DNA of 64,000 bases from an uncultured candidate division Zixibacteria bacterium (GCA_963713865.1 OY970208.1:2528001-2592000); one strand, 5' to 3'; numbered from the stretch's first letter, positions 15,696 through 64,000 are shown. Notes: generated by a model not told the origin, from the letters alone. Made by a program: numbers and translations.

Positions 15696-15760
15696 GTAGT
15701 GCGACCCTTTTCCTGATAACGGAGACTACGTCTGGCGTAGCCACCGTAGGACAGGGTCGC
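15696..15760. repeat. REP interrupted by a 41-nt hairpin insert
   Basis: Deleting 15711-15751 gives GTAGTGCGACCCTTTCAGGGTCGC, identical to the reverse complement of 27059-27082. Confidence 0.85.
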
Positions 15761-15763
15761 TTT

Positions 15764-15903
15764 TGTCATTCTGAGTCCCGCTTTTAGCGGGACGAAGAAT
15801 CTATAGATTCTTCAGTCGCCTCGCCAAATGCGGACTCCTTCAGAATGACAGATAATACAATCCGCTTTAAAAATCAGCTTAATCCGCTCCATCAGCTGTG
15901 AAT
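15764..15903. repeat. ~135-bp direct repeat, copy A (GTCATTCTGA palindrome doublet plus tail)
   Basis: Aligns with 17277-17407; first 39 nt identical. Confidence 0.9.
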
Positions 15904-15907
15904 ATAT

Positions 15908-17173
15908 TTACTCCACCAACCTTTTAAAATCCTCATCCTCCCACAGATTCTTGAAAGACTCATCCTTTTTTGCTTTTTTCTTATATTTAGGGTCAAGCTC
16001 AATAGCTTTCTTGAGATTTTCTAATGCTTCTTTTTTCTTATTTTGTAAGGAATAAACACAAGCTATACTATACCAAACACTTCCATCATTCGGCTCTATA
16101 TCTAATGCCTCCTTACACTTCTCTATCGCCTTCTCGTATGTACCTAATCGACATAAAGCTACACCCCAACTAAAATAAGCCTTTGCATAATCCTGCCTTA
16201 GTGTTATAGCCTTCTTAAACTTTTCTATAGCATCCTTATCACTGCCTAAGTCTCCTAAAGCTAAGCCCCAGTTTAAATGAGCTTCTGGCATATCTGGTTT
16301 CAGTTCCACTGCTTTCTTTAACTTATCTATAGCTTCCTTAGGCTTACCTAAGTCTCTTAAAGCTAATCCCCAGTTATTATAAGAACCTGCATCATCACAT
16401 TTGAACTCTATCGCCTTTTTATATTTTTCAATTGCATCCTCAAACCTACCTAACTTTCCTAATACAACACCCCAACTGAAATAGGCAGTGTAGTCATTAG
16501 GATTTAGCTTTATAACTTTTTTGAGTTCACCTATAGACTCATCATATTTTTTCTCAATATAATAGTTATAAGCCATCGTGTAATAAACCTCTTCATCAAA
16601 AATCTTATTCATTATTCTTTCATAATCTTCTATCGCTGTTTTGGAATCCTTTTTTACCAACCCAGAAACATCTTTTGAAAAATCAGGAGGAATATCTTTT
16701 TGTTGTTCCTTGATAATCTCCTTGAATTTTTTTATTTCGGCAACCTCCCTTTCTGCAACTTGTCGGCTTCCTTTTAACTCTTCACATATTTCTTTAATAT
16801 CTTTCTTATATTCCTTTACTCTTTCTAAATCTTCTTCAAAACCTCTTTTAAGTTCTGCTTTTGTTTCCTTATAGTCTGCTTTTATTTCCCTAATTCTCAG
16901 AACTCCAAAAATACCTACTGCTATAGCAATTAAAGTCACAAGGATAATCACTAAAGTTGAAATAAAGATGCTCTTGTTTGCTCCTTCAATCGCCTTTTCA
17001 TAACTTTCTTTTTTGACTTCCTCAAATCCCATTTTAAGAGTATCATTCTGAGCTTTCAGTTTCAAAATCTCTTGAGCAACCTGAGAAGTATCCTTAGAAA
17101 TAGTTTGAGCACTAACCGAAACCGAGGATAAAAGAATTAAACTCAAGACCCAGATAAAAATAATTTTTTTCAT
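15908..17173 (-). CDS. Membrane-anchored coiled-coil/TPR-repeat protein
   Basis: Signal peptide, TM helix, coiled coil, about six TPRs (AYFSWGVVLGKLG..EDAI..YKKAI). Confidence 0.88.
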   Translation of the reverse strand: MKKIIFIWVLSLILLSSVSVSAQTISKDTSQVAQEILKLKAQNDTLKMGFEEVKKESYEKAIEGANKSIFISTLVIILVTLIAIAVGIFGVLRIREIKADYKETKAELKRGFEEDLERVKEYKKDIKEICEELKGSRQVAEREVAEIKKFKEIIKEQQKDIPPDFSKDVSGLVKKDSKTAIEDYERIMNKIFDEEVYYTMAYNYYIEKKYDESIGELKKVIKLNPNDYTAYFSWGVVLGKLGRFEDAIEKYKKAIEFKCDDAGSYNNWGLALRDLGKPKEAIDKLKKAVELKPDMPEAHLNWGLALGDLGSDKDAIEKFKKAITLRQDYAKAYFSWGVALCRLGTYEKAIEKCKEALDIEPNDGSVWYSIACVYSLQNKKKEALENLKKAIELDPKYKKKAKKDESFKNLWEDEDFKRLVE

Positions 17174-17276
17174 AAGCCCTTTTTAGTTAGAGTTTTTAGT
17201 TATCATTTACGTGGCAGTTAGGTTCCCTGACCTGACTGCATTTTTACCCTTTCTTTTCCACTACATTCTACTCTCC

Positions 17277-17407
17277 TGTCATTCTGAGTCCCGCTTTTAG
17301 CGGGACGAAGAATCTGTACAGATTCTTCAGTCGCTACGCTCCTTCAGAATGACAGATAATACAATCCGTTTCAAAAATCAGCTTCTTCCATTCTATCAGC
17401 TGTGAAT
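17277..17407. repeat. ~135-bp direct repeat, copy B
   Basis: Aligns with 15764-15903. Confidence 0.9.
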
Positions 17408-17763: not shown

Positions 17764-17776
17764 ATTAAGTGATCCT

Positions 17777-18952: not shown

Positions 18953-18979
18953 AATATTTTCCTTATATTCTTTGTCTTT

Positions 18980-20185: not shown

Positions 20186-20273
20186 AAACAGACATTCTTG
20201 TCTGTTTGAATTTGGTAGAACAGGTATCTTGCCTGTTCCACTGAAATTGTCAGACAGGAATGTCTGACCTACC
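20186..20273. repeat. REP cluster at the 3' flank of RAYT #2 (ACAGGC-ATCTT-GCCTGT family)
   Basis: aaacagacattcttgtctgttt; ggtagaacaggtatcttgcctgttc; tcagacaggaatgtctgacctacc. Confidence 0.88.
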
Positions 20274-20918
20274 TGCTACCTGTTTCTTACAAAGAGGTGG
20301 CATATGCATCCCTGCCTGTGATTTATCATCTAACCAGCCTTTCACATAAAGCCATTTGTAATCTTTAGGATTTCTTGCTAAATCTTTTCTTATGGGGTTA
20401 TTAACAATATAATTCATCTTTTCAAAAAGCTCATTTTCATCCTTTATAATTCTATCAAAACTCTCATCCAACCATATCTTTGGTGATACAGGCATCTTAC
20501 TTATGTTTGGTAGGACAGGCATTTTGCCTGTATTTTTAAAAAGCTTAATTATCTCTTTACCAGAATAGCTTTTTATATTATGCATAATCTCTGCAATGCT
20601 GTAAAAAGTATATCTTGCTTTTTCTAAAGGTCGAATAACCAAATGAATATGGTCAGGCATAATAACATAAGCATAAAGTTTGTAATCTTTGCCATCATAA
20701 AACTTTATGCCATTAACAACAATATTTCTTGCTTCTATAGGGAGTATAGTATTTTGGGTTGTTCTAAAGGTAATAAAATAAAAGTTTCCTGGTTGTTCCC
20801 AGTGAGGTAGATTTCTTCTATAAATCCTGAATTCTTTCACAGGCTGGAAGCCTGTGATACCAGAAACTTGTCCCGTAAAATTTCTATTATTGGTTTGATT
20901 TTTTGATTTCAATTTCAT
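20250..20918 (-). mobile_element. REP-associated tyrosine transposase (RAYT, HUH/Y1) #2
   Basis: YRRNLPHW..YFITFRT, VIMPDHIHL (HUH), WLDESFDRII, YIVNNP; likely start ATG 20918; flanked by REPs. Confidence 0.88.
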
Positions 20919-20934
20919 TTCAGTCAAAATCCAC

Positions 20935-20990
20935 AGAACAGGCAAGGATGCCTGTTCTACCTGAGGGCAAGCACAGGAGCCTGCCTCTAC
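20935..20990. repeat. REP pair at the 5' flank of RAYT #2
   Basis: agaacaggcaaggatgcctgttctacc; ggcaagcacaggagcctgcctctac. Confidence 0.85.
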
Positions 20991-20992
20991 AC

Positions 20993-21745
20993 CTACAATT
21001 GATTTATCAAACTTGCTGCGCATCCAGCTCCAAAGCCGTTATCTATATTCACCACTACCACTCCGGAGGCACAGGAATTAAGCATGGCTAAAAGTGGAGC
21101 TACCCCTCCAAAGCTGGCTCCATAACCAATACTCGTAGGAACTGCAATCACCGGCTTATCCACAAGACCACTAACAACTGAGGGTAAAGCTCCCTCCATT
21201 CCAGCAACTACTATTATCACTTTAGCTTTTTTCAGCTTATCTAAATGATAGAAAAACCGGTGAATACCAGCCACGCCCACATCATACAGCCTTTCCACTC
21301 TATTCCCCATTACCTCACAGGTTAAAGCTGCTTCTTCAGCCACGGGAATATCTGAAGTTCCGGCAGAGACAACTAAAACATTACCTTTGAGCTTGAGTTT
21401 TTTTCTTCTATCAGTTTCAATCACAAAAATCTTAGCCTGTGGAAAATATTCAGCTTCAGGAAGATAAATTTTAAGCTTATCAAATACCTCTTCTTCTAAT
21501 CTGGTCCCCAGCACCACAGAGCCAGATTTTCTAATTTCTTGAGCAATTTTAACTATCTGCTCAACAGTTTTACCGGAACAATAGATAACCTCCGGGAACC
21601 CTTTTCGCAGGTGCCGGTGAAGGTCAACTCGCGCAAACCCCAAATCTTCAAAAGGCAAGGTCTTCAGAGCTTCCAGGGCTTTCTTCGGAGAAAGCTTTTT
21701 ATCTTTCACCTTATTCAACAGCCCTAATATTCTTTCAGGATTCAT
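20993..21745 (-). CDS. larB: Nickel-pincer cofactor biosynthesis protein LarB
   Basis: GFPEVIY, AGTSDIPVAEEA, DVGVAGIHR, AGMEGALPSV, VNIDNGFGA. Confidence 0.95.
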   Translation of the reverse strand: MNPERILGLLNKVKDKKLSPKKALEALKTLPFEDLGFARVDLHRHLRKGFPEVIYCSGKTVEQIVKIAQEIRKSGSVVLGTRLEEEVFDKLKIYLPEAEYFPQAKIFVIETDRRKKLKLKGNVLVVSAGTSDIPVAEEAALTCEVMGNRVERLYDVGVAGIHRFFYHLDKLKKAKVIIVVAGMEGALPSVVSGLVDKPVIAVPTSIGYGASFGGVAPLLAMLNSCASGVVVVNIDNGFGAGCAASLINQL

Positions 21746-26654: not shown

Positions 26655-27082
26655 GTAGAGGCACAACATGTTGTGCCTCCTATTTTTTCAAGTTATGTAG
26701 TGGAGGTCTTCAGACCTCCATAAATAAAAAATGTTGGAGTGCATCAGCTTGTCAATGTTGACCTTGAGGCTGATGCTTCTCAAAAATAATAAAAACGCAA
26801 GAGCAAGCTCTTGCACTCCAAAAGACTCCAAAAAAGAAGTGGAATACAATTTCACTTACGCGGGATGGGGCTGATGAGAGGGAAGTTGATTGTAGAGTAG
26901 TGTTGTTAGGTAGAACAGGCATCTTGCCTGTTCCTTTTGGTCAGACCCTACGGATCCGCAGGACAGGATGCCTGACCCACCAGAATCCAGTATCCCCGCC
27001 TTACCCACAAGGTGGGATAAGATAAAAACCAGTGATGTCTGCTACACTTCTCTAACAAGCGACCCTGAAAGGGTCGCACTAC
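26655..27082. repeat. Dense mixed REP cluster
   Basis: At least seven palindromes, including a GGAGTGC doublet (26734-26821), a RAYT#2-type doublet (26909-26981) and gcgaccctgaaagggtcgcactac. Confidence 0.88.
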
Positions 27083-38888: not shown

Positions 38889-39743
38889 TTAATCTAAAAT
38901 ATTTATTAATCCCAATACGAAATTAGCCGAATTATCTGCGGCTACTTTAAAGAAATCTTTAATCTCCATAGCCGCAGTAGCAGAGCCTGAACCACCAGCC
39001 AAATCTGAACAGCTTCTCACCACTAAAACCGGAACTCCATTTATATTTGCCACCTGCACCACCGCCGCAGATTCCATATCCACAATTTCGGCGCCAAATT
39101 TATCCTTCAAATAGTCTCTTTTCTCCTTCTGATCGATAAACGAGTTACCGGACACTCCTTTACCTCCGGTTTTAACCTGAGGAATGCGTTCCTGAACCGG
39201 TTTTAATTTAAGAGACTGACCGGCTGATTTTGCTTTATCTAAAAGGTTCTTGTCCACTTCGAAATAAAGAACCCCAGCCTCTCTTTCATTGCCGGGCAGG
39301 ACCACATACACAGAGTCAGGTAAAAATCCCTCTTTGCCATAGTAGCCATAGTCATGCGTTGCCCAGCTCTCCGGGATCACGATATCGCCTATATGGTTTG
39401 AAGAATCAATGCCTCCACATATACCGGTGAAGATTATCTCTTTAGGATTATATTTGTCAATTAAAAGCTGGGTGGTCATCGCTGCATTGGTCATTCCCAC
39501 CCCGGAGTTGACAATGATAACCTCTTTGCCTTCTTCATCTGATCCGGCTGACAATTTACCAATCCAGAAAACTCTTCCTTTAACGAAAAGGCTATCCTGC
39601 AGATTTAGCCTGCTTCGTAGAAGCGTTCCTTCATCATCAAAGGCGTACATCAAGGCGATTTTACTTTTAGTTCCAGCAGATGATTGAATAAAAAAGATAC
39701 AGATAAAAAACAAAGCGGTGATAAGAATTAGCTTTCTTTTCAT
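38889..39743 (-). CDS. 5'-methylthioadenosine/SAH nucleosidase family, with signal peptide
   Basis: SGVGMTNAA, IFTGICGG, VDMESAA, VRSCSDLAG. Confidence 0.85.
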   Translation of the reverse strand: MKRKLILITALFFICIFFIQSSAGTKSKIALMYAFDDEGTLLRSRLNLQDSLFVKGRVFWIGKLSAGSDEEGKEVIIVNSGVGMTNAAMTTQLLIDKYNPKEIIFTGICGGIDSSNHIGDIVIPESWATHDYGYYGKEGFLPDSVYVVLPGNEREAGVLYFEVDKNLLDKAKSAGQSLKLKPVQERIPQVKTGGKGVSGNSFIDQKEKRDYLKDKFGAEIVDMESAAVVQVANINGVPVLVVRSCSDLAGGSGSATAAMEIKDFFKVAADNSANFVLGLINILD

Positions 39744-41063: not shown

Positions 41064-41093
41064 TTTTTCTCCTTTAGGCTGGGTAAATTTCCC

Positions 41094-41438
41094 CTACTCG
41101 ATTTCAAATGACTCTATGAAAAGCTCTCTCCCTGTCTTAATCTCTATCCTGAACGAACCACAAAAGGGGCAGGTGAAATCCATGACCTCAAGGCTGAGTT
41201 TTTTCTTACAATCTTTGCATTTCCCGGTTATTGGGACTGAATCAATCATAAGGGATGCTTTTTCTAAAGAGGACTCTTTTGATATAACTTCAAAAGATAA
41301 TCTCAATGCCTCGGGTTCCACGCTGGTAAGCTTCCCGATTTTCAGATTGATCCTGGTTACCTTCCCTTTATGGTTTTTTTTAGTCAATTTCTCTTCAATC
41401 ACTTTTATGATATTTTCCGCTACTGCCATCTCGTGCAT
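41094..41438 (-). CDS. hypA: Hydrogenase nickel chaperone
   Basis: MHE start, two CxxC, GRE. Confidence 0.95.
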   Translation of the reverse strand: MHEMAVAENIIKVIEEKLTKKNHKGKVTRINLKIGKLTSVEPEALRLSFEVISKESSLEKASLMIDSVPITGKCKDCKKKLSLEVMDFTCPFCGSFRIEIKTGRELFIESFEIE

Positions 41439-41448
41439 ACGATTTCCT

Positions 41449-42474
41449 TTAACAGATGCGCGGGAACTGCTCCCCTATGAGCATATCCACCACTCTGGTA
41501 CCGCCATATCTGGTCTTTAAACCCACCATCCCTATAAATTTGTCTGTTATCTCGCCGATGATTTCCGCCTTTTTCCCCAAAGGGTTCTTTCTTAGAATGT
41601 TCAGGATTTTTTCAGCTATTTGAGGTGCAATCACCATTATTACTTTCCCCTCATTCGCCAGATATAATGGGTCATACCCTAAAAGCTCGCAGAATCCTTT
41701 CACCTCCTCCCTGACCGGGATTTTCTCCTCAGATAAAAGGATCCCAAAATTTCCACCAGATACCATCTCATTTAACACCGTAGCTAAGCCGCCGCGAGTG
41801 GGATCTCGCATAAACTTTATCTTATCTTTGAATTTCAGGATTGAACCGATTAAATCCGAAAGGAAAGCGCAATCGCTTTTTACTTTGGTTTGAAATTCCA
41901 GGCCCGCTCTGGAGGAAAGAACGGCAGTGGCATGATCACCTATGGTCCCGTTGATTATGATTTTATCCCCGACTTTTATCTTCTCTTTGCTTAAATCAAT
42001 TCCCTTTGAAATTATTCCTATTCCTGAGGTATTTATAAAAATTTTATCCGCGCTTCCTTTTTCCACCACTTTAGTATCACCAGTTACAATTTGAACTCTG
42101 GCTTTTTGAGCAGTTTTTTTCATCGATAAAACGATTTTCTTTAAGATGCTTTTATCCAGCCCCTCCTCGATAATCAGAGAGCAAGATAAAAATAAAGGTT
42201 TTGCGCCCATTACCGAAAGGTCGTTTATGGTTCCGCAAACTGCCAATTTGCCAATATCCCCGCCCGGGAAAAAGATGGGCTGGATCACATAGGAATCTGT
42301 GGTGAAAGCTATTCTTTGTTCATTTAGACTAAAGACCGCCGAATCCTCCAATCTATTCAGGATTTTGTTTTTAAAGTTCTCTTTAAATAGATGAGAGATC
42401 AGTTCCAGGGAAAGCTTACCACCGGCACCATGGGAGAGGCTTATTTTTTCACCAGAATTGGACTTGGTAATCAT
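41449..42474 (-). CDS. hypE: Hydrogenase maturation protein
   Basis: HGAGG, TTDSYV, GDTKVV, RDPTRGG, terminal PRIC. Confidence 0.96.
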   Translation of the reverse strand: MITKSNSGEKISLSHGAGGKLSLELISHLFKENFKNKILNRLEDSAVFSLNEQRIAFTTDSYVIQPIFFPGGDIGKLAVCGTINDLSVMGAKPLFLSCSLIIEEGLDKSILKKIVLSMKKTAQKARVQIVTGDTKVVEKGSADKIFINTSGIGIISKGIDLSKEKIKVGDKIIINGTIGDHATAVLSSRAGLEFQTKVKSDCAFLSDLIGSILKFKDKIKFMRDPTRGGLATVLNEMVSGGNFGILLSEEKIPVREEVKGFCELLGYDPLYLANEGKVIMVIAPQIAEKILNILRKNPLGKKAEIIGEITDKFIGMVGLKTRYGGTRVVDMLIGEQFPRIC

Positions 42475-42476
42475 TT

Positions 42477-43595
42477 TTATTTCCCCTTTGACGATTTTTT
42501 TGGCCCATACTTAAAATAAGCCTGACAGGAACCTTCAGATGAAACCATACAAGGCCCGATTGGAGATTGAGGGGTGCATTTCCTTGCAAAAAAAGGACAA
42601 TCTAAAGGAGAGCTCTTTCCCTGAATAACCAATCCGCACAAGCAACCTTTAGGTTCTTGGCTTTTCTCAACTTGTACCTCTATTTCTTCCTGGGCATCGA
42701 ATTCCCGGTATACATTTTTGATTTTTAAACCGGAATTGGGGATGACACCTATCCCTCGCCAGACTGAATCTTCCTGCTCAAACACTTCTTCCATCAAATT
42801 CAGAGCCACCGGATTCCCTTCTTTCTTCACCGCTCGCGAATATTGATTATCGATTCTTGCCTTTTTATTTTTTAATCGATCTAATAAGATGTATATGGAT
42901 TGGAATAGATCCAGAGGTTCAAATCCGGAAATGACGCAGGGGATTTTAAATTCGTCCACTAAAAACTCATAAGGTTTAGTTCCGATAATGGTGCTAACAT
43001 GACCGGGACATATAAATCCATTCACTTTCAGGTCGTTTGATCGGGCTAAGAATCTCAAAGCCGGAGGGATTAATTTATGAGCTGTTAGAACGTAAAAATT
43101 CTTGATACTTTTAGTTTTCGCCTCCTTTAAGGCAAAAGCAACCGTGGGCGCAGTGGTCTCAAAGCCAACTCCCAAAAAAACCACTTCTTTATCCGGATTT
43201 TCTTTGGCAATTTTAAAGGCATCCAGAATGGAATAGACCATCCTTATATCTTTTCCCCTGGTTTTCTCCTTTTCCAGAGACGAGGAAGAACCCGGGACTT
43301 TCATCATATCCCCAAAGGTGGTGAGGATAAGGTCATCTAATCTGGACAGCGCTATGGCTCTGTCCAGATATGTGTTTGGCGTAACGCAAACCGGACATCC
43401 TGGTCCGGAGATCAATTTCACATTCTTAGGTAGAATGCTCTTTATCCCGGACTTGAAGATAGCTACCGTATGGGTTCCGCAAACCTCCATCAAGGTAATC
43501 TCTTCTTCAATTTCTTGAGCAATCTTTTTGATTTTTTCCGCTAAAATACGGGTTTTCTTTGAGTCCGAAAACCCGTTCAATAAATCTTTACTCAT
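42477..43595 (-). CDS. hypD: Hydrogenase maturation protein
   Basis: MEVCGTHT, GPGCPVC, GFETT, PGHVS, CMVSSEG. Confidence 0.96.
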   Translation of the reverse strand: MSKDLLNGFSDSKKTRILAEKIKKIAQEIEEEITLMEVCGTHTVAIFKSGIKSILPKNVKLISGPGCPVCVTPNTYLDRAIALSRLDDLILTTFGDMMKVPGSSSSLEKEKTRGKDIRMVYSILDAFKIAKENPDKEVVFLGVGFETTAPTVAFALKEAKTKSIKNFYVLTAHKLIPPALRFLARSNDLKVNGFICPGHVSTIIGTKPYEFLVDEFKIPCVISGFEPLDLFQSIYILLDRLKNKKARIDNQYSRAVKKEGNPVALNLMEEVFEQEDSVWRGIGVIPNSGLKIKNVYREFDAQEEIEVQVEKSQEPKGCLCGLVIQGKSSPLDCPFFARKCTPQSPIGPCMVSSEGSCQAYFKYGPKKSSKGK

Positions 43596-43812
43596 TTCCA
43601 ATTGCTTCAAGCTCGTCAAATAGTTTTAAAGTCTTTAAAGCTTCTTTTCGATCTAATTTCTGAATGGCAAATCCTGCATGCAGGACCACATAATCCCCGA
43701 CTTTAACCTTATCCAGAAGCTCTAAGCTGATTTTTCTTTTAATCCCCTTAAACTCTGCTATTCCTTCCTTCTTATTTTTCTGAATGATTTTTACCGGAAC
43801 TCCTAAACACAT
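43588..43812 (-). CDS. hypC: Hydrogenase assembly chaperone
   Basis: MCLGVP start, VGDYVVLHAGFA. Confidence 0.95.
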   Translation of the reverse strand: MCLGVPVKIIQKNKKEGIAEFKGIKRKISLELLDKVKVGDYVVLHAGFAIQKLDRKEALKTLKLFDELEAIGNE

Positions 43813-43813
43813 A

Positions 43814-46081
43814 TCAAATCCTCTGATTTGCAATTACGGCTTGTCCCAAAGATATACCCCCGTCATTAGGGGGAACCTGGTGATGAGTGTAAACTTTGAA
43901 TTTGTTTTTGTTCAAAAGACCATGAGTTCGATCTAACATAAACATATTCTGAAAAACTCCGCCGGATAAGCATACCAGATTCAGGTTATGCTCTTTCCTT
44001 AATCTTAAACAAACCTCATTTATCATCCGAGCTACAGTATTATGGAACTTAGCAGCAATTATTGAATTTTCCTCTTTCTTTATTAAATCTCTTACGATCC
44101 CTTTTATAGTAAGCTCTGGGTCAATAATAAATATATCCTTTTCCTTCGTTATTTCAAAGAGGTATTTCCCTTTAACCTTTTCATCTGACATCATCTCCAG
44201 CTCAACGGCTGGCTGACCTTCATAGTTAGTCCTCTCCCTCCATCTCAATAGAACTGAAACCGCATCGAATAGCCTGCCGGCGCTGGAGGTAGGGTAAAGG
44301 TTAATTCTCTGGTCTAACATCTTCTTTATTACTGCCCATTTGTTTAGGTTGATTTTTTTAACAAATTCTAAATCCAGATTCAAAAAATCTGCTCCATAGC
44401 AAGCATATAAATAGGATACAGCCATCCTCCAGGGTTTTTTAATAGCCATTTCTCCTCCAGGCATAGGAACATATTTGAGATGAGCCACCCTCTGGTAACC
44501 TTTCAAATCTGTTAAAAGGAACTCTCCACCCCAAACAGCTTTATCCTCTCCATAACCAGTTCCGTCAAAGGCAACACCGATCACTTTCTGGCTGATTTTG
44601 TTTTCAGCCATACAGCTTACGATATGAGCATGATGATGCTGAACCGGAATTTTTTTGACATTACCTAAAGACAGAGCGTATTTGGTGGAGAGATATTCCG
44701 GGTGCAAATCATAGACTATAATTTCTGGTTTAACTGAACAGAGCTTTTTAAACCTCTCGATCTCTTTAATATAAAAGTCTAAAGTCTCATAGTTTTCCAG
44801 ATCCCCTATATGAGTACTCAGGAAGGCTAAATTGTTCCTGGCTAAGCAGAAAGTGTTTTTGAGCTGGGCACCCAAGGCTAAAACATGTTTTCGAAAATCA
44901 AAATCCACTTTTAGGGGAGAAGGGACATATCCCCTTGCTCTTCGTAAAAGTATCTCCTCTCCCTTCCAGACTTTGCTCACCGAATCATCACAGCGTCTAT
45001 AAATCTCTCGATTGTGAATTAGAAAATAATCAGCGATAGTATTCAATCTTTGAAAAACATCGTCGTTTTCGAAACAGATAGGTTCGTCCGATTGATTTCC
45101 TGAAGTCATAACCAGAATCAGATTCGACTTTTTAAGCAGGAGATGATGCAGGGGGGAATAAGGAAGCATCACTCCCCAGTATTTTTGAAGAGGTGCGACC
45201 TCTGGTGCGATTATTTTTACGTTTTTCTTTTTCAAGAGTAAAATTGGACGGATAACAGATTGCAGTAGTCTTTCTTCCGCTGGATTAACCTTACAAAATC
45301 TCCGGATAGTTTCTAAATCTTTAGCCATCATCGCAAAGGGCTTGTCCTCTCTATATTTTCTTTTTCTTAAATTGGAAACTGCATCCTCATTGGCAGCGTC
45401 GCAGGTTAAATGATACCCGCCGATCCCTTTTATAGCTACGATATGACCTCTCTTGAGAAGTTCAATCGTGGAGACTACTGGGTCTTTGGTGGTTTGTAGC
45501 TTCTTCTTGTTATCCATCAAGGCCAAGTACGGTCCGCAAACCGGACAGGCATTGGGCTGGGCGTGAAATCTCCTGTCCTGAGGACTATGGTATTCGCTTT
45601 CACAATCCGGACACATTTTGAAAGCAGACATCGTGGTTTTATCTCTGTCATAGGGGATATCTTGAATGATGGTCACTCTGGGTCCGCAGTTAGTGCAGTT
45701 CAAAAAAGGGTAACCAAACCTTCGATCCTGAGGATTAAAAAGTTCATTTAGACAATCATCGCAGGTGGCTAAATCCGGGGATACAAAAACGGTTTTAATA
45801 TGCTTATTTACACTTTCCCGGATTACAAAATTCTGGTAATTATGATATGGGATTTTCCTGATTTTGACCTGTTCTATCCGGGACTGGGGAGGGGGCGAAG
45901 CTTTCACATGAAGCAAGAATTCATTAATAGCTTTCTTTTTACCCTCTACCTCAATCTCAACCCCCGCGGTATCATTCAAAACATAACCGCGTAGGTTATA
46001 CTTATGGGCTAAGTTATAAATAAAAGGTCTAAAACCCACCCCCTGAACAATCCCTTTTATTTCAATCCTTAAACCCTGCAT
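43814..46081 (-). CDS. hypF: Carbamoyltransferase
   Basis: GIVQGVGFRP, Zn fingers, KGIGGYHL, QHHHAH, PPNDGGISLGQ. Confidence 0.96.
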   Translation of the reverse strand: MQGLRIEIKGIVQGVGFRPFIYNLAHKYNLRGYVLNDTAGVEIEVEGKKKAINEFLLHVKASPPPQSRIEQVKIRKIPYHNYQNFVIRESVNKHIKTVFVSPDLATCDDCLNELFNPQDRRFGYPFLNCTNCGPRVTIIQDIPYDRDKTTMSAFKMCPDCESEYHSPQDRRFHAQPNACPVCGPYLALMDNKKKLQTTKDPVVSTIELLKRGHIVAIKGIGGYHLTCDAANEDAVSNLRKRKYREDKPFAMMAKDLETIRRFCKVNPAEERLLQSVIRPILLLKKKNVKIIAPEVAPLQKYWGVMLPYSPLHHLLLKKSNLILVMTSGNQSDEPICFENDDVFQRLNTIADYFLIHNREIYRRCDDSVSKVWKGEEILLRRARGYVPSPLKVDFDFRKHVLALGAQLKNTFCLARNNLAFLSTHIGDLENYETLDFYIKEIERFKKLCSVKPEIIVYDLHPEYLSTKYALSLGNVKKIPVQHHHAHIVSCMAENKISQKVIGVAFDGTGYGEDKAVWGGEFLLTDLKGYQRVAHLKYVPMPGGEMAIKKPWRMAVSYLYACYGADFLNLDLEFVKKINLNKWAVIKKMLDQRINLYPTSSAGRLFDAVSVLLRWRERTNYEGQPAVELEMMSDEKVKGKYLFEITKEKDIFIIDPELTIKGIVRDLIKKEENSIIAAKFHNTVARMINEVCLRLRKEHNLNLVCLSGGVFQNMFMLDRTHGLLNKNKFKVYTHHQVPPNDGGISLGQAVIANQRI

Positions 46082-46189
46082 TTGTCAAAGATTAAATATA
46101 CTTAGAAAAAAATCTCTATCGTTAATAAATCCCATTACAACCCTTTTCTATTTATAATATACATTATTGATACGATTTGTCCTAATATA

Positions 46190-46207
46190 TTGTTATTTTT
46201 TTCACAA
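46190..46207. promoter_or_regulatory. Degenerate Rex-like operator upstream of hypF
   Basis: TTGTTATTTTTTTCACAA, 2 mismatches to TTGTGAA-N4-TTCACAA. Confidence 0.5.
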
Positions 46208-46310
46208 TCTCAATTTCACAAACAGGACATTATAGATTATATAGCTCCTGTTTATCCTCGTTTTAATTAACAAAAAAAGACTATCTCGCTCATTTAACTT
46301 AAGATTTTTC

Positions 46311-46338
46311 TTGACAAGCTCTGAACGACATATATAAT
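46311..46338 (+). promoter_or_regulatory. sigma70 promoter of the hydrogenase operon
   Basis: TTGACA-16 nt-TATAAT. Confidence 0.7.
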
Positions 46339-46339
46339 A

Positions 46340-46357
46340 TTGTGAAATGATTCACAA
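46340..46357. promoter_or_regulatory. Rex-type operator (also fits the CRP/FNR-family box)
   Basis: TTGTGAAATGATTCACAA, exact TTGTGAA-N4-TTCACAA, directly after the -10. Confidence 0.75.
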
Positions 46358-46417
46358 TATGACTTTTGATTTTGTAGAATATTTTTAACAATTAAAACCA
46401 AACCTATGGAGGTCTTT

Positions 46418-47401
46418 ATGGATCTTTCCCGTCGGAAGTTCCTGAAGTTAGTCGGGGGGTCTGCAGTCGGTGTAGGTCTTTCCAATATCTGGCTGCCGAA
46501 GGTAGTTCAGGCACTGGTAGAAAAGTCCGGTAACCCGCCCGTTATCTGGCTTCAAGGACAAAGTTGTAGCGGTTGTTCTGTTTCAACACTGAATACGGTT
46601 TACCCTGATATTGCCAAAGTTCTAACTGAGATTATCAGCCTGGAATTTCACCCCACAGTAATGGCATCAGCCGGGGACCCGGCTTTGAAGATATTAGAGG
46701 ATGCTATGACCAATCAGGCAGGTAAATACTTCCTGGTGGTCGAAGGTTCTGTACCTACACTGGGTGGCGGAGCCTATTGCACTGTAGGCGAAAACTTAGA
46801 TAAACCCGTAACGGTTGAGGAATGGACCAAAAAGTTAGGATCACAAGCCAAAGCCATTTTGAATGTCGGAACCTGCTCTTCCTTTGGCGGCATACCAGCT
46901 GGCCAGCCAAACCCAACTGGTGCTAAAAAGGTAGGTGATATCCTTCCCGGTAAAACTATGATTAACCTGCCGGGTTGCCCGCCTCATCCTGACTGGATAA
47001 TTGGTACTATAGCCCATGTCCTTTTGTTCGGGATACCGGAACTGGATGAAAACCTCCGTCCCAAGGTCTTCTATTCCAAAGTAATCCATGAAAACTGCGA
47101 AAGGAGATCCTATTTCGAACAAGGGGTTTTTGCTTCCGATTACAGCGAAGAAGGTTGTATGTACCAGTTAGGCTGTAAAGGACCGGTAAGCCATTGCGAT
47201 GTCTCTATTAGAGGATGGAACAACGGAGTGAACTGGTGCGTCAGAAGCGGCAGCCCTTGTATCGGCTGTACTGAGCCCGATTATCCTGATTTCTCCGGTG
47301 GCGGACTTTACGGTGTTTTAGACAAATCCTCCATTTTGAACATCCCCTGGAACAAGGCAGATAAAGATAAAGCCAAACAAACCTCAACTCGTCTATCTTA
47401 A
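46418..47401 (+). CDS. Group 1 [NiFe] hydrogenase small subunit, Tat-exported
   Basis: SRRKFLK, CSGC, GTCSSFGG, PGCPP, HENC, GCKGP, WCV..PCIGC; no C-terminal TM. Confidence 0.95.
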   Translation: MDLSRRKFLKLVGGSAVGVGLSNIWLPKVVQALVEKSGNPPVIWLQGQSCSGCSVSTLNTVYPDIAKVLTEIISLEFHPTVMASAGDPALKILEDAMTNQAGKYFLVVEGSVPTLGGGAYCTVGENLDKPVTVEEWTKKLGSQAKAILNVGTCSSFGGIPAGQPNPTGAKKVGDILPGKTMINLPGCPPHPDWIIGTIAHVLLFGIPELDENLRPKVFYSKVIHENCERRSYFEQGVFASDYSEEGCMYQLGCKGPVSHCDVSIRGWNNGVNWCVRSGSPCIGCTEPDYPDFSGGGLYGVLDKSSILNIPWNKADKDKAKQTSTRLS

Positions 47402-47419
47402 TAGAAAGGAAGGAATAAA

Positions 47420-48979
47420 ATGTCAAATAAAAAAATCGTAATCGATCCCGTTACTCGAATAGAGGGTCACTTAAAGATAGAGGTAGAGGTAAATGACGGC
47501 AAGATCACCGATGCCAAAAGCTCAGGCGAGATGTTCCGGGGCTGGGAGGTGATCTTAAAAGGGAGAAATCCGGTCGACGCCCAGATGATTACCCAGAGGA
47601 TTTGCGGAGTCTGTCCCTCTGCTCACGCCCAGGCATCAACCCTGTGCCTGGATAATGCCTTCGGAATCAACCCACCTGAAAACGGCATGCTGATTCGAAA
47701 TCTGGTCTTCGGCGCAAATTTTATCCAGTCCCATATCCTGCATTTCTATCATTTAGCCGCTCTGGATTTTGTGGACATAACTGCCATACTGAAATATACC
47801 GGTAAAGATCCCGGCCTGAACAGGCTCAAAGACTGGGCTAAAAATGAGTTAGATTCACAGAGACCGACTGCGGTTGCCCCTTTCCTGCCCCGGTATAAAG
47901 GAGATTATATTGCGGATACAGATGCGAACATCCAGGCTATAGCTCATTACGTTAAAGCCCTGGATATGAGGAAAAAAGCTCATGAGATGCTCTGCATCTT
48001 CGGTGGAAGGATGCCCCATGAAATAGCGATTATGCCCGGTGGAGCTTGCGAAAAACCGACAGTGGACAAGATCACCGAATACCTTTACCGCATGAAAGAG
48101 ATACAGACTTTCATCGACAACTGCTATATCCCGGACGTAATTGCTGTGGCAAAGTCCCATCCCCAGTATTTTGAGATCGGCAAGGGATGTGGCAATCTCC
48201 TTGCTTACGGAGTGTTCGAGGAGAAGGTGGATGGAAGCAAAAAATACATATCCGCCGGAACCTACATCGATGGTAAGTTAGGGGAATTGAACCCTGATAA
48301 GATCGCAGAATTTGTGAAATACTCGAAATTCTCCTCAGGCACCGGACTTCACCCTTCAAAAGGTGAAACAATACCAGCCCCGGATAAGAAAAAAGCCTAT
48401 TCCTGGATAAAATCTCCCAGATATGATGGAAAACCGATGGAAGTGGGACCTATGGCCAGAATGGCTATAAACCATCTCCAGGGGGAAAATCCAAAACTTT
48501 CCAGGCTGGTAAACGATACCTTGAATACCTTCAACGCCCCGGTAACCGCCTTATTTTCCGTTTTAGGACGTCATGCTGCCAGAGCCCTGGAGTGCAAGTT
48601 AGTCGCAGATAAGTGTGCTGAGTTGGTGATGCAGCTCGACCCCTCCAAACCAGTTCACACTAAATTCGAAATACCAGAGCAAAGCATGGGTATGGGTCTA
48701 ACTGATGCAGCAAGAGGAGCGTTAGGTCACTGGATATCGATCAAAGGGAAAAAGATAGACAACTACCAGGCAGTAGTTCCCACTACCTGGAATGCCAGCC
48801 CCCGGGATGATAAGAACATACCCGGACCAATCGAACAGGCTCTGATCGGAACTCCTGTGGCTGATCCGGATAATCCGATTGAGCCTTTAAGAGTGGTCAG
48901 ATCCTTTGACCCCTGTCTTGCCTGTGCCATTCATATACTCGAACCCAAGAAGGACGTGAAGAAGTTCCGGGTTATATAG
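47420..48979 (+). CDS. Group 1 [NiFe] hydrogenase large subunit
   Basis: TRIEGH, L1 QRICGVCPSAH, L2 RSFDPCLACAIH plus cleavable tail. Confidence 0.95.
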   Translation: MSNKKIVIDPVTRIEGHLKIEVEVNDGKITDAKSSGEMFRGWEVILKGRNPVDAQMITQRICGVCPSAHAQASTLCLDNAFGINPPENGMLIRNLVFGANFIQSHILHFYHLAALDFVDITAILKYTGKDPGLNRLKDWAKNELDSQRPTAVAPFLPRYKGDYIADTDANIQAIAHYVKALDMRKKAHEMLCIFGGRMPHEIAIMPGGACEKPTVDKITEYLYRMKEIQTFIDNCYIPDVIAVAKSHPQYFEIGKGCGNLLAYGVFEEKVDGSKKYISAGTYIDGKLGELNPDKIAEFVKYSKFSSGTGLHPSKGETIPAPDKKKAYSWIKSPRYDGKPMEVGPMARMAINHLQGENPKLSRLVNDTLNTFNAPVTALFSVLGRHAARALECKLVADKCAELVMQLDPSKPVHTKFEIPEQSMGMGLTDAARGALGHWISIKGKKIDNYQAVVPTTWNASPRDDKNIPGPIEQALIGTPVADPDNPIEPLRVVRSFDPCLACAIHILEPKKDVKKFRVI

Positions 48980-48993
48980 TAGAAACTATCTGT

Positions 48994-49029
48994 AAACAGG
49001 GGATCTGAAATCAGATCCCCTGTTTTTTT
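48994..49029 (+). terminator. Rho-independent terminator/attenuator after the large subunit
   Basis: aaacaggggatctga-aa-tcagatcccctgttt followed by a T run. Confidence 0.8.
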
Positions 49030-49032
49030 CCT

Positions 49033-49494
49033 ATGAAAGTGAAAAAGAAAATTTTAATAGCCGGTGTGGGAAACCTTCTTTTTACGGATGAAGGTATAGG
49101 CGTTCATATCATAAAGGAGCTCTCTGAGATAGATTTGCCAGAATATGTAGAATTAGCCGAAATCGGAACAGCCACCTTCGAGCTTTTTAGATTTATGGAG
49201 GGGAAGGATAAAGTGATAATCATCGATGCTATCATCTCGAATGAGTTACCTGGAACTGTTTACAAACTTACCCCGGACGAGCTGAAAAAAGAGAAAACAA
49301 AATTTTTAACCTCCCTGCACCAATATGGAATACTGGATGCCCTAAAATCCTCCGCCCAGATAGGTAACAAGCCTGATACCATAATTTTCGGGATAACGCC
49401 AAAAGATTATAAAACCTTAGGCACCGAACTTACCCCCGAATTAAAGAGGTCGATTCAGAAGATTATCAAGATAATTTTGAAAGAAATAAAATAA
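49033..49494 (+). CDS. Hydrogenase maturation endopeptidase (HyaD/HybD family)
   Basis: GVGNLLFTDEGIG, IIIDA, SLHQ. Confidence 0.92.
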   Translation: MKVKKKILIAGVGNLLFTDEGIGVHIIKELSEIDLPEYVELAEIGTATFELFRFMEGKDKVIIIDAIISNELPGTVYKLTPDELKKEKTKFLTSLHQYGILDALKSSAQIGNKPDTIIFGITPKDYKTLGTELTPELKRSIQKIIKIILKEIK

Positions 49495-49862
49495 AAGCTT
49501 TCTTCCTGAAAATCCTTCTTTTCTACAGTGTAATTATTACTATCCTAAAAATAAAAAACAAAGAGGCTGGGATTCTTCTGTTAGCGTTCGTGTAAGTCTC
49601 TATCCGTCTTTCAATTATCTGATAACCTTTTGTTACACTTGAAGTTTCATTTTTTGTTTCTTTTTGTTTGTTTTTGTCTCTTTTTATCTATTTATACTTT
49701 GTTCGGTCACAAAATCTAAACAAAAATATATTCAACATCTATTTTATTAATCAGAACATAAAGAACCATTTATCTTCCTTGAACAACAGTTTCCCCTTCT
49801 TAATATACTTAACTAATAGGTACATATCTTAGAATGCAGCCAGTGCAGGACAGGGCTGTCTA

Positions 49863-49959
49863 AGATGGTAGGGATTCAAAATTTTGAATCCCTACCATCT
49901 CCAAACTCCAAACTGTTTTTCAGTCCCGCCTGCGGCGGGATTTCCCCGATTTATCGGGG
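49863..49959. repeat. Perfect 38-bp palindrome plus two GC-rich mini-palindromes
   Basis: agatggtagggattcaaaa|ttttgaatccctaccatct; tcccgcctgcggcggga; ccccgatttatcgggg. Confidence 0.88.
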
Positions 49960-52205: not shown

Positions 52206-52306
52206 TTGGAGTGCATTAACTTGTCGAATTTGACCTTGAGGTTAATGCTTGCAAAAACAAACTTTTGCACTCCAACAAAAATGGGCAACCCACCGGGTCG
52301 CCCCTA
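52206..52306. repeat. GGAGTGC REP doublet with 18-nt loop insert, plus another REP
   Basis: Homologous to 26734-26821 and to the reverse complement of 61855-61980. Confidence 0.85.
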
Positions 52307-52345: not shown

Positions 52346-52418
52346 AGCCACCGACCCGAATCGAACGGGTGACCGGCTGATTACGAATCAGCTGCTCTGC
52401 CATCTGAGCTACGGTGGC
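52346..52418 (-). tRNA. tRNA-Thr(CGT)
   Basis: GCCACCG acceptor stem, anticodon arm GCTGA-TTCGTAA-TCAGC, GTTCGATTC; no encoded CCA. Confidence 0.93.
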
Positions 52419-52498
52419 GAAAACAGTTTGATCGTTTGTCCGTTTGGAGTTTGAAGAAACTTCGAACAAACTAACAAACTTACAAACGGTATTATAAA

Positions 52499-52571
52499 TG
52501 CCACCCCCCAGAATTGAACTGGGCACACACGGATTTTCAGTCCGTTGCTCTACCGACTGAGCTAGAGTGGC
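52499..52571 (-). tRNA. tRNA-Phe(GAA)
   Basis: Anticodon arm ACGGA-CTGAAAA-TCCGT, GTTCAATTC; no encoded CCA. Confidence 0.93.
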
Positions 52572-52761
52572 AAATAGAACTTATTAACTTTAAACTCTAC
52601 GCAATAATATAGAAATCAGCGAATTATTTCCCTTTATTAAAAGGGAAATCTATCTTTGTTAATCGGCAATTTATATTACATCCCCACTTTGTCAAGCGAA
52701 AAAAGACAATTTAACGCTTTGCAGGCAGGTTTTACTTGTAAATAATACACACCATTAGCAA

Positions 52762-53100
52762 TTAATTCAAAATTTTATAATTTAGAACCTCTAAAGGAGT
52801 GCCCTGCATACAGAAGGATGCTATAATTTTTATCTTACCTATTACCGTAATCTTTAATCCCTCTTTTTTAATTCCAATCGACCTTTCACCTACGAGTTCG
52901 TATGATATGCCTGAGTTTGAAACTAAAATCCAGCATTCATACTCTACACCTCTTTTCACTGTACCAGTTACTATTATAAGGTCACCTTCTCCTTCAGACT
53001 TGAAAGGATTCTCACAACCTGAAAAAAATAAAAATAACCAAATCAGCAAAATAATAACTGCGATTTCTTTCCCAGGTATTTTTGATTTCAGAATATTCAT
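52762..53100 (-). CDS. Small putative lipoprotein
   Basis: Hydrophobic leader with FSGC lipobox; GVEYECW..CMQG Cys pair; GGAGG RBS. Confidence 0.7.
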   Translation of the reverse strand: MNILKSKIPGKEIAVIILLIWLFLFFSGCENPFKSEGEGDLIIVTGTVKRGVEYECWILVSNSGISYELVGERSIGIKKEGLKITVIGKIKIIASFCMQGTPLEVLNYKILN

Positions 53101-53153
53101 TTAACCCTCCCTGAACTAACCACTCTCACTAATCACCAATCACTGTTTTTAAC

Positions 53154-53227
53154 TGCGCCCAGAGGGATTTGAACCCCCAACCATCTGATCCGTAGTCAGG
53201 CGCTCTATCCAGTTGAGCTATGGGCGC
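53154..53227 (-). tRNA. tRNA-Arg(ACG)
   Basis: GCGCCCA acceptor stem, CTGA-CTACGGA-TCAG, GGTTCAAATCC; no encoded CCA. Confidence 0.93.
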
Positions 53228-61791: not shown

Positions 61792-61854
61792 ATAAACCTC
61801 TCTTCTATCACACAGAACTTTCAATTTCTCCCCGCAAACCCTTATCCTTTTTTC

Positions 61855-61980
61855 TGGAGTGCAAGAGCTTGTCGTAGCGAAGCGAAGATCCCGTTTTTTC
61901 GGGACTCTTGCTTTTTCAAAGCATCAGCCTCAAGGTCAAATTCGACCTCAAGGTCAAATTCGACAAGCTGATGCATTCCG
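61855..61980. repeat. GGAGTGC REP doublet with both loops carrying inserts (33 nt; 2 x 18 nt)
   Basis: Inserts 61872-61904 and 61928-61963 sit at the same loop position relative to the empty REP at 26797. Confidence 0.88.
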
Positions 61981-62003
61981 ATTTCATCCTTTGAACCCTT
62001 TTT

Positions 62004-63092
62004 TTATCTTATTTTTAACGTGCTCAAAGTTAAAAGTGCAAATATTGCACCTGCAATCCAGAATCTCACCACCACTTTTGGCTCTTTCCAGCCTGAAAGC
62101 TCAAAATGATGATGAAGTGGTGTCATTTTAAAAATTCTTTTACCTTTACTCCATTTAAAATAACTTACCTGCAAAATAACTGAAAGAGCTTCCGCCACAA
62201 ATACCCCTCCCACGATTACCAGGAGCAACTCCTTCTTCACCATTACAGCAATAATTCCTAAGGAGCCACCTAAGGCTAAAGCCCCGGTATCCCCCATAAA
62301 TACTTCTGCCGGATAGGAGTTGAACCATAAGAAGCCCAGAGCTGCCCCTATTAGAGTCCCGCAGAAAATGGTCAACTCTCCACTTCCTTCTAAATAGGTT
62401 ATACCTAAATATCTGGAGAAATCGGTTCTACCTGTGACATAGGCTATACCAGCAAAGGCAACCGCACATAGACCGGTTAAACCTATAGCTAACCCATCCA
62501 ATCCGTCTGTTAAATTAACCGCATTGGAAGAACCGGTTAAGACTAACATCACAAATGGGATATACAAAATCCCGAAGTCCAGGAAGTAGTTTTTAATGAA
62601 TGGAATCTCCGTGGCCGTATCGAAATTACGAGAGGGAGGGAAAAAATAAAGAAGAGCACCTAAGACCAATCCTAAACTTATTTGCCCGACTAACTTTTTC
62701 CTACCCACCAACCCCTTAGGTTGATGCTTTAGAGCTTTGAGATAATCATCCATAAACCCTATCAAACCCATCCAGATAGTGGTTAAAAGTATCATTTGAA
62801 TATAGCGATTAGTAAGGTCAGCCCAAAGGGCAGTGGGCAGCACAACTGAGAAAAGGATAATCAGTCCACCCATAGTTGGCGTCCCCTCCTTCGTCAGATG
62901 GGATGCTGGCCCCTCTGCCCTTATCTTCTCCTTAACCTGTTTCTCCTTCAGCTTGCGAATAAAATATGGTCCCAGAATCAAACTTAATAAAAGCGCGGTA
63001 ATAGTAGCATAGGCCGTGCGGAAGGTTATATATTTAAATAGATTAAAAAAACTGATATTTTGACTCAAAGGATATAACAGGTGATAAAACAT
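62004..63092 (-). CDS. mraY: Phospho-MurNAc-pentapeptide translocase
   Basis: GTPTMGG, DDYLK, NLTDGLDG, FMGDTG, HHHFE. Confidence 0.96.
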   Translation of the reverse strand: MFYHLLYPLSQNISFFNLFKYITFRTAYATITALLLSLILGPYFIRKLKEKQVKEKIRAEGPASHLTKEGTPTMGGLIILFSVVLPTALWADLTNRYIQMILLTTIWMGLIGFMDDYLKALKHQPKGLVGRKKLVGQISLGLVLGALLYFFPPSRNFDTATEIPFIKNYFLDFGILYIPFVMLVLTGSSNAVNLTDGLDGLAIGLTGLCAVAFAGIAYVTGRTDFSRYLGITYLEGSGELTIFCGTLIGAALGFLWFNSYPAEVFMGDTGALALGGSLGIIAVMVKKELLLVIVGGVFVAEALSVILQVSYFKWSKGKRIFKMTPLHHHFELSGWKEPKVVVRFWIAGAIFALLTLSTLKIR

Positions 63093-63100
63093 CTTACTTT

Positions 63101-64000
63101 TTAATCCTGCGGACGGATCCGTAGAACCGGAAAAAGTTTTTTCAAGCCATTTACTATCTCTTCCAATCCCATTTTCCTGGAACCTTTGAAAAGAATTAAG
63201 TCACCAGGTTTCATTATCTCTAAAAGATTTTCCAAAAGTCTTTTTTTATCCTGAAAAGAAAATACATTTTTCTTATCAAAACCTTTTTCTAAAGCCCCTT
63301 GAGCAATAGCTAAGGAAAGCTCTCCAAAGGTAAAAAGGTAGTCGATTCCATATTCTTTTACTTTCTCTCCGATATTTTTGTGAAACTCAAAAGATTTTTC
63401 ACCTAACTCCAGCATATCACCTAAGACTGCAATCTTTCTCCCATCTGTTTTAATCCCCCGTAGGGTCTCTAAAGCTTTTTCCATAGAGAAAGGGTTAGCA
63501 TTATAGGCATCATTTATGATTTTTATTCCATCTATCTCAGCAAATTCCATCCTCAGATCAAAAGGAGTATAATTTTCCAGGGTTTCTTTTATCTTTCCCT
63601 TTTCTACCCCTAAGATTGAACCTGCGGAGAATGCGGCTAAGGCATTATATAAATTATGCTTACCTAAAAGCTTAAGTTTAATCGGAACTGAGCTGTTAAC
63701 TGAAAAAGAGAAAAAGCCATTACCGTTTTGCATAATCTTTTCTGCAATAAAATCAGCTTTTCTTTCCAGACCAAAGGTATAGACTTTCTTCTCCTCTTTT
63801 TTAGCTCTTTCATAAAGATAGGGATCATCAACATTCAGAATTGCAGTTCCTTTTTCATCCATATTTTCTAAAAGTTCGAATTTTGCCCGAGCGATATTCT
63901 CTAAGCTTCCCATAAACTCTAAATGAGCTGGACCGATATTGGTGATCAGTCCAATATCCGGCTTCACCATTCTGGTAAGAATACCTATCTCTCCGGGCTG
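63101..64000 (-). CDS. murF: UDP-MurNAc-tripeptide-D-Ala-D-Ala ligase, 5'-partial
   Basis: TNIGPAHLE, NDAYNANP, LGDMLELG, KGSR. Confidence 0.94.
   Translation of the reverse strand, partial: QPGEIGILTRMVKPDIGLITNIGPAHLEFMGSLENIARAKFELLENMDEKGTAILNVDDPYLYERAKKEEKKVYTFGLERKADFIAEKIMQNGNGFFSFSVNSSVPIKLKLLGKHNLYNALAAFSAGSILGVEKGKIKETLENYTPFDLRMEFAEIDGIKIINDAYNANPFSMEKALETLRGIKTDGRKIAVLGDMLELGEKSFEFHKNIGEKVKEYGIDYLFTFGELSLAIAQGALEKGFDKKNVFSFQDKKRLLENLLEIMKPGDLILFKGSRKMGLEEIVNGLKKLFPVLRIRPQD

Follow-up and report, generated by a model that had tools for sequence, protein, structure and literature searches.

Precisely inserted micro-elements as a second, smaller and very probably mobile layer in the hairpin repeats and genes of a Zixibacteria lineage

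The window analyzed here is a stretch of 64,000 nucleotides (GCA_963713865.1 OY970208.1:2528001-2592000) from an uncultured bacterium of the candidate division Zixibacteria, whose genome is a single contig of 2.72 Mb with 40% G+C. Hairpin repeats of the GTAG type (REPs) are very abundant across this genome, and an initial annotation of the window had proposed that they harbor a further mobile layer of tiny insertions produced by an HUH enzyme. We find that a second, smaller layer is indeed nested in REP hairpins and in genes: its members are inserted precisely and without target duplication, and their copies differ between close relatives. Each module enters as a discrete unit whose TC...GA ends are fixed, and its insertion neither loses nor duplicates bases of the target. 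The modules prefer the single-stranded tips of hairpin repeats and positions before C-A, but ordinary DNA receives them too. Inside genes the survivors are whole-codon copies only, which add short loops rich in Ser/Gly or Pro/Asp. Movement takes place over the time in which species diverge. We regard it as very probable that these defined micro-elements are mobile. The fuller account, in which they constitute a lineage-specific set of ultra-small non-autonomous mobile modules, is the one we favor, though we would give it somewhat less than an even chance.

All five inserts that the initial annotation had delimited, (a) to (e), were recovered at the positions assigned to them; each reads GA|CA on one strand, and a target duplication is absent in every case. 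Four of these, (a), (b), (c) and (e), are single-copy in the genome. Insert (a) (15711..15751, plus strand) is a 41-base element in the loop of a GTAG-type REP (15696..15760, plus strand; GTAGTGCGACCCTTT^CAGGGTCGC), in which ends reading TCC..AACGGA and CCGTAGGA surround an inner hairpin. As had been claimed, its excision leaves GTAGTGCGACCCTTTCAGGGTCGC, 24 bases that are the exact reverse complement of an empty REP at 27059..27082 (minus strand). The element and its host fold as a single extended hairpin (z -5.7), and genome-wide this host REP has 27 empty copies, with at most one substitution, as against 5-12 filled ones. Insert (b) (26946..26963) is the 18-base CCCTACGGATCCGCAGGA at the GTCAGA^CAGG spot of another REP; its removal yields GGTCAGACAGGATGCCTGACC, a diverged copy of the REP at 20249 with a few letters changed. 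Insert (c) (61872..61904, minus strand) occupies the loop of GCAAGAGCTTG^CTCTTGC with 33 bases, made up of a small hairpin and a TTCGCTTCGCT tail, and its excision restores a palindrome that is also present at 26797..26819 (minus strand). Insert (d) (52224..52241) is an 18-mer, CCTCAAGGTCAAATTCGA on the minus strand, with 17 exact copies in the genome and 37 matches at up to three mismatches. A variant of it is found at 26752..26769 (minus strand) within a GCATCAG..CTGATGC hairpin, and a tandem pair at 61928..61963 (plus strand) adjoins (c). Finally, insert (e) (39534..39551, minus strand) lies in frame, as 6 codons over 18 bases, in a phosphorylase gene with a Pfam match to PNP_UDP_1.

Comparisons with relatives recover several of these sites in different states. 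The relatives used were two genomes of the same genus, G001 and G002 (87-93% identity), and several from the same family; G000, G001 and G002 are the three same-genus genomes in the presence/absence comparisons. Empty alleles, the lack of which the initial annotation had named as grounds for abandoning its proposal, were found for two of the five inserts. Insert (c) is missing in G001, which has the exact empty orthologous site between nearly identical flanks; insert (e) is carried, in diverged form, by all three same-genus genomes and is a true insertion of 6 codons, missing in 6 genomes from other genera (another three loci ended short of the site). At the (b) site, G002 has a different insert, of approximately 21 bases, in the same REP, and a third insert occupies the same GTCAGA^CAGG spot in another REP copy at genome position 1269944; three different inserts are recorded at one spot, where one public run shows yet another. 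The site at 26752 has a single 18-mer in the window and two in tandem at the orthologous site of G002, and the tandem pair at 61928..61963 is common to the window and G001. For (a), the orthologous intergenic region of G001 is occupied by other REPs and offers no filled/empty reading. A further case emerged from the 41.5 kb alignment of the window with G001, in which indels of at least 5 bases were listed: between xseA and xseB (the latter identified from the open reading frame list), the window is empty at 14387..14388 where G001 carries a perfect 21-base element, TCCGAATTTGGATCCGTAGGA. The same indels also include (c), in the window only, as well as a 27-base REP and a 31-base piece. The initial annotation had made the inserts conditional on raw-read support; two of them are supported by independent assemblies, in which contigs span (b) (one contig of run X2) and (e) (contigs of 3 runs) without an 18-base gap, these being assembled contigs from public runs rather than raw reads. 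Where some runs left portions of the 20-kb stretch uncovered, this was taken as uninformative.

At least three sequence families, F1, F3 and a 33-base module, account for the inserts, in place of the five different sequences of the initial annotation; few families are involved in all, and one of them takes in (b), (e) and the ends of (a), with (b) and (e) being short or decayed members. This family, F1, is the outstanding class in a genome-wide scan for filled and empty sites. It is a 21/22-base, roughly palindromic module that in its commonest orientation reads TCCTACGGATCC-N-GGA, where N stands for approximately 7 variable bases. Its layout is TCCTAC-GGATCC-~7 variable bases-GGA, and its general form TCC-N-GGATCC-N-GGA, with symmetric ends (TCC...GGA) about a palindromic core. 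Requiring TCC at 2-9 bases before GGATCC and GGA at 2-9 bases after it, we found both arms at 75 of the 394 GGATCC sites of the genome, where approximately 7 are expected, which gives at least 75 copies. Their size ranges from 18 to 23 bases, with modal lengths of 22 outside genes and 21 inside; the special standing that had been accorded to a length of exactly 18 nucleotides does not hold up. Variants such as ..GTTTCTCGGA and ..GTTAATAGGA are found in several genomes. There is also a long form like (a), in which a 20-base hairpin replaces the central T, and which is present in about two dozen copies in several hosts.

F3, to which (d) belongs, is a separate, oriented 18-mer ending in ..TCGA. 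Nearly all of its good copies have C-A or C-T next, and about half of its distinct contexts have CAG on the preceding side. The initial annotation had cautioned that the copies of (d) may descend from one insertion that spread with its host REP. As the 18-mer occurs in approximately 8 different contexts, several of them non-REP, such host-borne spread is not the whole story. Insert (c) represents the 33-base family, of which a second member resides in another host at genome position 1268006. Its boundaries are unambiguous (shift 0), as are those of the genome-wide filled/empty pairs of F1.

The modules as a whole range in size from approximately 16 to 43 bases and show repeated nesting. A module of 16-17 bases (GTCTCAAGACCTTGAKG) also sits in loops and can itself hold an F1; at genome positions 160468 and 1946614 there are three layers, with a REP hairpin holding the 16-17-base GTCTCAAGACCTTGAKG module, which in turn holds an F1. 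Some long F1 forms hold a further nested 21-base element: a GC-rich module (GCCC..GGGCGGGC..GGCT) lies in the inner hairpin of the long F1 at genome positions 32486, 986121 and 2625128, and this GGGCGGGC module is seen in both orientations and at two different points. At genome position 767756, an 18-base F3-like piece stands within an F1, immediately before its GGATCC core, indicating that the families also insert into each other.

The genome-wide junctions support precise insertion with a preferred, rather than an obligatory, target. Our scan sought stretches of 6-100 bases that, once taken out, leave a 24-mer present elsewhere; precise filled/empty pairs exist within the genome, with 161 events of 9-60 bases having an empty site at another locus, many of them nested hairpin modules. 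For an unbiased analysis of junctions, 134 filled/empty events of 12-60 bases were kept. Among all 256 four-letter words GA|CA ranked top (13 of the 134 events; runner-up, 9), and TC...GA is the commonest pair of insert ends (14 of 133 events; runner-up, 3). The GA|CA(A/G) junction put forward in the initial annotation is therefore real and the commonest, but it is not universal: its GA is the end of the element itself and its CA is only a preference. In 57 non-redundant F1 contexts, C comes first among the outward flanking bases in 37% and A comes second in 54%; at least one side shows CA in 17 of them against an expectation of about 11%, an enrichment of approximately 3-fold (p=6e-5), and F1 inserts in either orientation relative to the CA side. 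A target requirement for CCT/AGG, matching the ends of the element, was considered and rejected: no more than 6 of 73 contexts had both, which exceeds the hairpin-apex controls only weakly. The preference for hairpin tips is evident from the 13 of 44 intergenic F1 copies that lie between perfect stems of at least 6 bp, as opposed to 3% of control positions. Across genomes, the F1 unit is found at the tips of at least 12 unrelated hairpin families, and in the tested hairpin hosts empty copies outnumber filled ones.

Within genes, the reading frame leaves a clear mark on the surviving copies. Coding status was approximated by stop-to-stop frames of at least 150 codons rather than by gene calls, and some 'genic' copies at the ends of frames are probably intergenic. 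By this measure 31 of the 75 F1 copies lie in long open frames, and their length is divisible by 3 in 21 of these 31 (19 of the 21 being 21 bases long) as against 12 of the 44 intergenic copies (Fisher p=8e-4). The genic copies encode stretches of the form S-x-x-G-S-x-G or P-x-D-P-like stretches. Two further in-gene sites compared with relatives proved to be true 21-base insertions: one is shared by the three same-genus genomes and, in diverged form, by G005, and is absent in four others; the second is found in G000 and G001 only and is absent in ten. Together with (e), this makes three confirmed insertions out of three.

The phyletic distribution of F1 is narrow. In a phylum-wide sample of 151 genomes, its pattern was detected in 13 and a reversed control pattern in none, with counts of 27 in G000, 68 in G001, 33 in G006, 9 in G004 and 1-6 in a few others. 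A separate collection with one genome per species yielded 54 matching stretches, 51 of which come from four metagenome-assembled genomes, three titled Zixibacteria and one Ignavibacteria; the remaining 3 are single matches in other taxa. By our calculation, 18 fixed bases would give approximately 17 chance matches. By these pattern matches, F1 occurs almost only in one Zixibacteria family.

How such pieces move is a more tentative matter. A chromosomal enzyme acting in trans would cut exactly at the ends of the element and would join the cut piece into exposed single-stranded DNA. Our best single guess for this enzyme is a RAYT-type HUH nuclease, and the candidate would be one of the approximately 13 in the genome. 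The lack of target duplication, the conserved 3' end, the single-stranded hairpin targets and the many intact RAYT-like genes are what make an HUH enzyme fit, and PMC3479197 contains the proposal that a RAYT could pass the cleaved strand to any 3'-OH end. The genome has eight Pfam Y1_Tnp matches and, in addition, a RAYT-like subfamily with seven paralogues. Two RAYT-like genes had been reported in the window, and both are present and look intact: RAYT1 (20250..21023, minus strand), a Y1 HUH gene with a PF01797 match that is flanked by GGTAGAACAGGC.. REPs; and RAYT2 (4828..5397, minus strand), with seven paralogues in the genome, which has an HLH motif and shares 47% identity with a further Y1 gene found here.

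The assignment of the inserts to HUH/RAYT or IS91 activity, as originally made, nevertheless drew no help from any test that was run, since those on orientation, RAYT proximity, distribution, junctions and folding were each negative or neutral. Several observations weigh against a RAYT as the agent. First, there is no orientation bias with respect to the replicated strand in the small numbers available (12:7 for F1, 11:15 for F2 and 10:11 for F3), with replichores set from a GC skew that has an unclear plateau: the cumulative skew is flat between approximately 0.35 and 0.85 Mb, so that the origin cannot be placed sharply, and the terminus lies near 1.92 Mb. Second, the 700 bases around 13 RAYT-like genes show no enrichment of F1 motifs (2 as opposed to an expected 2.8): an F1-like 21-mer at 4772..4792, approximately 40 bases past the stop codon of RAYT2, and one partial match are all that is found there, which is not above chance. 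REPs themselves, unlike F1, do flank their RAYT genes. Third, RAYT2-type genes are present in 59 of the 151 phylum genomes as against 13 for F1, and G004 carries F1 yet gave no RAYT2-type match; co-occurrence of the two across the 151 genomes was accordingly rejected, as the distributions do not match. Fourth, the junctions of F1 are N^TCC and GGA^N, with C before TCC in only about 10% of the flank readings and C^T as the rarest junction, so that the C^T cleavage shown for the Escherichia coli TnpA-REP (PMC3479197) does not apply here, although this rule may differ in other RAYT groups. Fifth, the 18-mers fold no better than shuffled versions (z of about 0), so it is doubtful that the short forms offer a hairpin by which an HUH enzyme could hold them. 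Sixth, a search for a long gene-carrying element with F1 ends yielded none, only one 35-base form. Separately, a strict target rule is contradicted by the fresh G001 insertion at window position 14387, which lacks CA, and by the presence of CA in only 17 of the 57 F1 contexts. In five cases two F1 copies are separated by less than 3 kb, and the genes that they enclose offered nothing suggestive. As for IS91, the genome gave no match to its Y2-type transposase (PF04986), and the control genomes likewise gave none; CTTG precedes (c) and (d) in their REP host, though not the F3 and F1 copies in other contexts.

Taking these points together, we consider an HUH/RAYT enzyme to be a possible, if doubtful, agent of these insertions. 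We are similarly hesitant about the bolder idea that modules of 18-22 bases are the smallest autonomous-looking bacterial transposition units, which a RAYT-type or undescribed enzyme would excise at fixed TC...GA ends and paste into exposed single strands. If this were true, the same process would build nested hairpin repeats layer by layer and also write protein loops of 6-7 residues.

Alternatively, a dedicated enzyme outside the HUH class might move the modules. We can envisage at least two forms of this: a dimeric nuclease or recombinase that recognizes the GGATCC palindrome and cuts symmetrically at the TCC/GGA ends; or a small GIY-YIG (Ssn-like) single-strand nuclease acting together with a ligase. 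What moves would then be a short piece of duplex or a hairpin. Such an enzyme would account well for the symmetric ends and palindromic core of F1, for insertion in both orientations relative to the CA side and for the absence of a strand bias, and it agrees with the limitation of F1 to one bacterial family in the face of widespread RAYTs. It sits less well with F3 and the 33-base element, which are non-palindromic, and no candidate gene was identified for it, with none of those flanked by F1 standing out. We see this as an unlikely option that nonetheless deserves serious attention.

A transposase might also be dispensed with altogether if breaks at hairpin tips and similar places, such as those from SbcCD-type cleavage, were sealed with the abundant short fragments that existing copies release. 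The enrichment of copies at hairpin apexes, the weak specificity for the target sequence, the different inserts at one spot and the tandem copies are all as such a capture would have them. But it predicts ragged ends and random filler, whereas both junctions are base-exact in many independent events with the target bases intact, and the ends of the elements are always TC...GA; we hence view break-repair capture as improbable. Copying between repeats, by template switching or gene conversion among REP hairpins, would render the inserts mere variable loops of REPs. The turnover of intergenic REP content is fast; many filled copies share host and orientation (F1 in GCGACCC and F3 in GCATCAG); and the composite of the REP and (a) recurs in four other genomes at 95-97% identity. 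Nevertheless, copying fails for the insertions in genes and non-repeat DNA, which lack flanking homology, and for the presence of one 21/22-mer across at least 12 hairpin hosts unrelated to each other. As the sole process it is largely refuted and its probability is low, but inside REP families it could well contribute to the spread. That the pattern reflects chance similarity or misassembly is scarcely credible, for even though short-read assemblies can mis-join repeats and our support comes from contigs, there is a 10-fold excess over expectation with zero matches to the control pattern, the sites are kept across independently assembled genomes and contigs, and the genic lengths keep the reading frame.

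A few other features of the window were noted. The listed frame of xseA (14471-15769) begins within the REP that bears (a) (window 15670-15769); its first 30 or so residues are repeat-encoded, and the true start probably lies further downstream. The open frame of RAYT1 passes through REP-like sequence in its 3' part (window 20500-20540), where G001 and contigs of runs X1 and X2 have an extra 27-base REP (9 codons); in the translated frame, REP DNA accounts for a recurring KMPV(L/S)P stretch. Two segments of the window, 1-5428 and 40234-49889, have no alignment of at least 300 bases to the fetched stretches of G001 contigs, and RAYT2 is located at the edge of one such break in synteny. Three clustered minus-strand tRNA genes (window 52346-53227) lie beside the F3-bearing hairpin at 52224, and at 52474-52481, as elsewhere in the genome, there are tandem 8-base units (of the ACAAACTT type) whose copy number differs between G000 and G001. 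An F1-like stretch of 27 bases in an open reading frame (63105..63131) shows no indel relative to G001.

REPs were discovered approximately 40 years ago, and we know of no demonstration of how the substrates of RAYTs spread, nor, to our knowledge, have the small dispersed repeats (SDRs) of cyanobacteria been explained. The lineage studied here provides a clean system in this regard: a 21/22-base unit whose ends are exact, fresh presence/absence differences that separate sister species, numerous independent hairpin targets and in-frame copies in conserved enzymes. The mechanism could accordingly be tested with oligonucleotides and a small set of candidate enzymes. The lineage also illustrates a route by which selfish DNA can add short loops to proteins. 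For annotation, the implication is that such inserts can lengthen or mimic open reading frames.

Among described elements, the nearest kind appears to be the SDRs of Nostoc, to which we liken the present modules by their manner of working and not by sequence. SDR1-8 of Nostoc punctiforme and its relatives, reportedly described by Elhai et al. in 2008, are said to measure 21-27 bases. SDRs are nested in other repeats. The modules resemble them in being very small (16-22 bases here), dispersed, gene-less, exactly positioned and nested in repeats: as to unit size, F1 has 18-23 bases in at least 75 copies and F3 18 bases in 17 exact copies, and as to precise insertion into another repeat without duplication, there are exact filled/empty pairs. 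They differ in belonging to another phylum and in their smaller size, as well as in their confirmed whole-codon insertions in conserved genes, their presence/absence among congeners and their measured preference for hairpin tips. The palindromic elements of Rickettsia and the mobile GC clusters of yeast mitochondria, which are palindromic, selfish and approximately 40-150 bases long, offer another parallel in that they survive in genes by keeping the frame or nest in hairpins; the inserted unit here is of 18-21 bases, equivalent to 6-7 residues, and belongs to another lineage. SDR5 inserts exactly into the HIP1 palindrome, between its bases 3 and 4 (PMC4390886), and SDR-like repeats were not found outside Nostocaceae among the cyanobacteria examined there (PMC5861425); the SDRs of Nostoc are also treated in PMC3116915.

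The other comparisons are with REPs and REPINs, and with the IS200/IS605 elements. With the former, as portrayed in PMC3116915 and PMC3479197, the modules share the character of short, hairpin-prone repeats with an internal GTAG (..CCGTAGGA), the absence of target duplication and the presence of RAYT genes. Unlike in REPs, the GTAG of F1 is in the 3' arm and not at the 5' foot of the hairpin, whereas the host REPs do have a 5' GTAG; further, F1 is also genic (31 of 75 copies), is without RAYT flanking and has junctions other than C^T. Its unit is of 20 bases, in contrast to the REP doublet of approximately 100 bases, and it lives inside REPs as a further layer. With IS200/IS605 elements (PMC6006769), the modules share the lack of target duplication, a conserved 3' end and a single-stranded or hairpin substrate; as opposed to these elements and their miniatures, they have no subterminal hairpins at both ends and no lagging-strand bias, are at least 10 times smaller and, in the case of F1, have no fixed 5' target of 4-5 bases. 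Our literature search retrieved no report of such elements in Zixibacteria, nor of short palindromes inserted duplication-free into loops, and for RAYTs with nested REPs it retrieved only the known REPIN work. Judged by these features of its copies, F1 would fall outside REP/REPIN elements and probably outside IS200/IS605 elements as well. With the SDRs as their closest counterparts in manner of working, these modules are among the smallest mobile DNA known.

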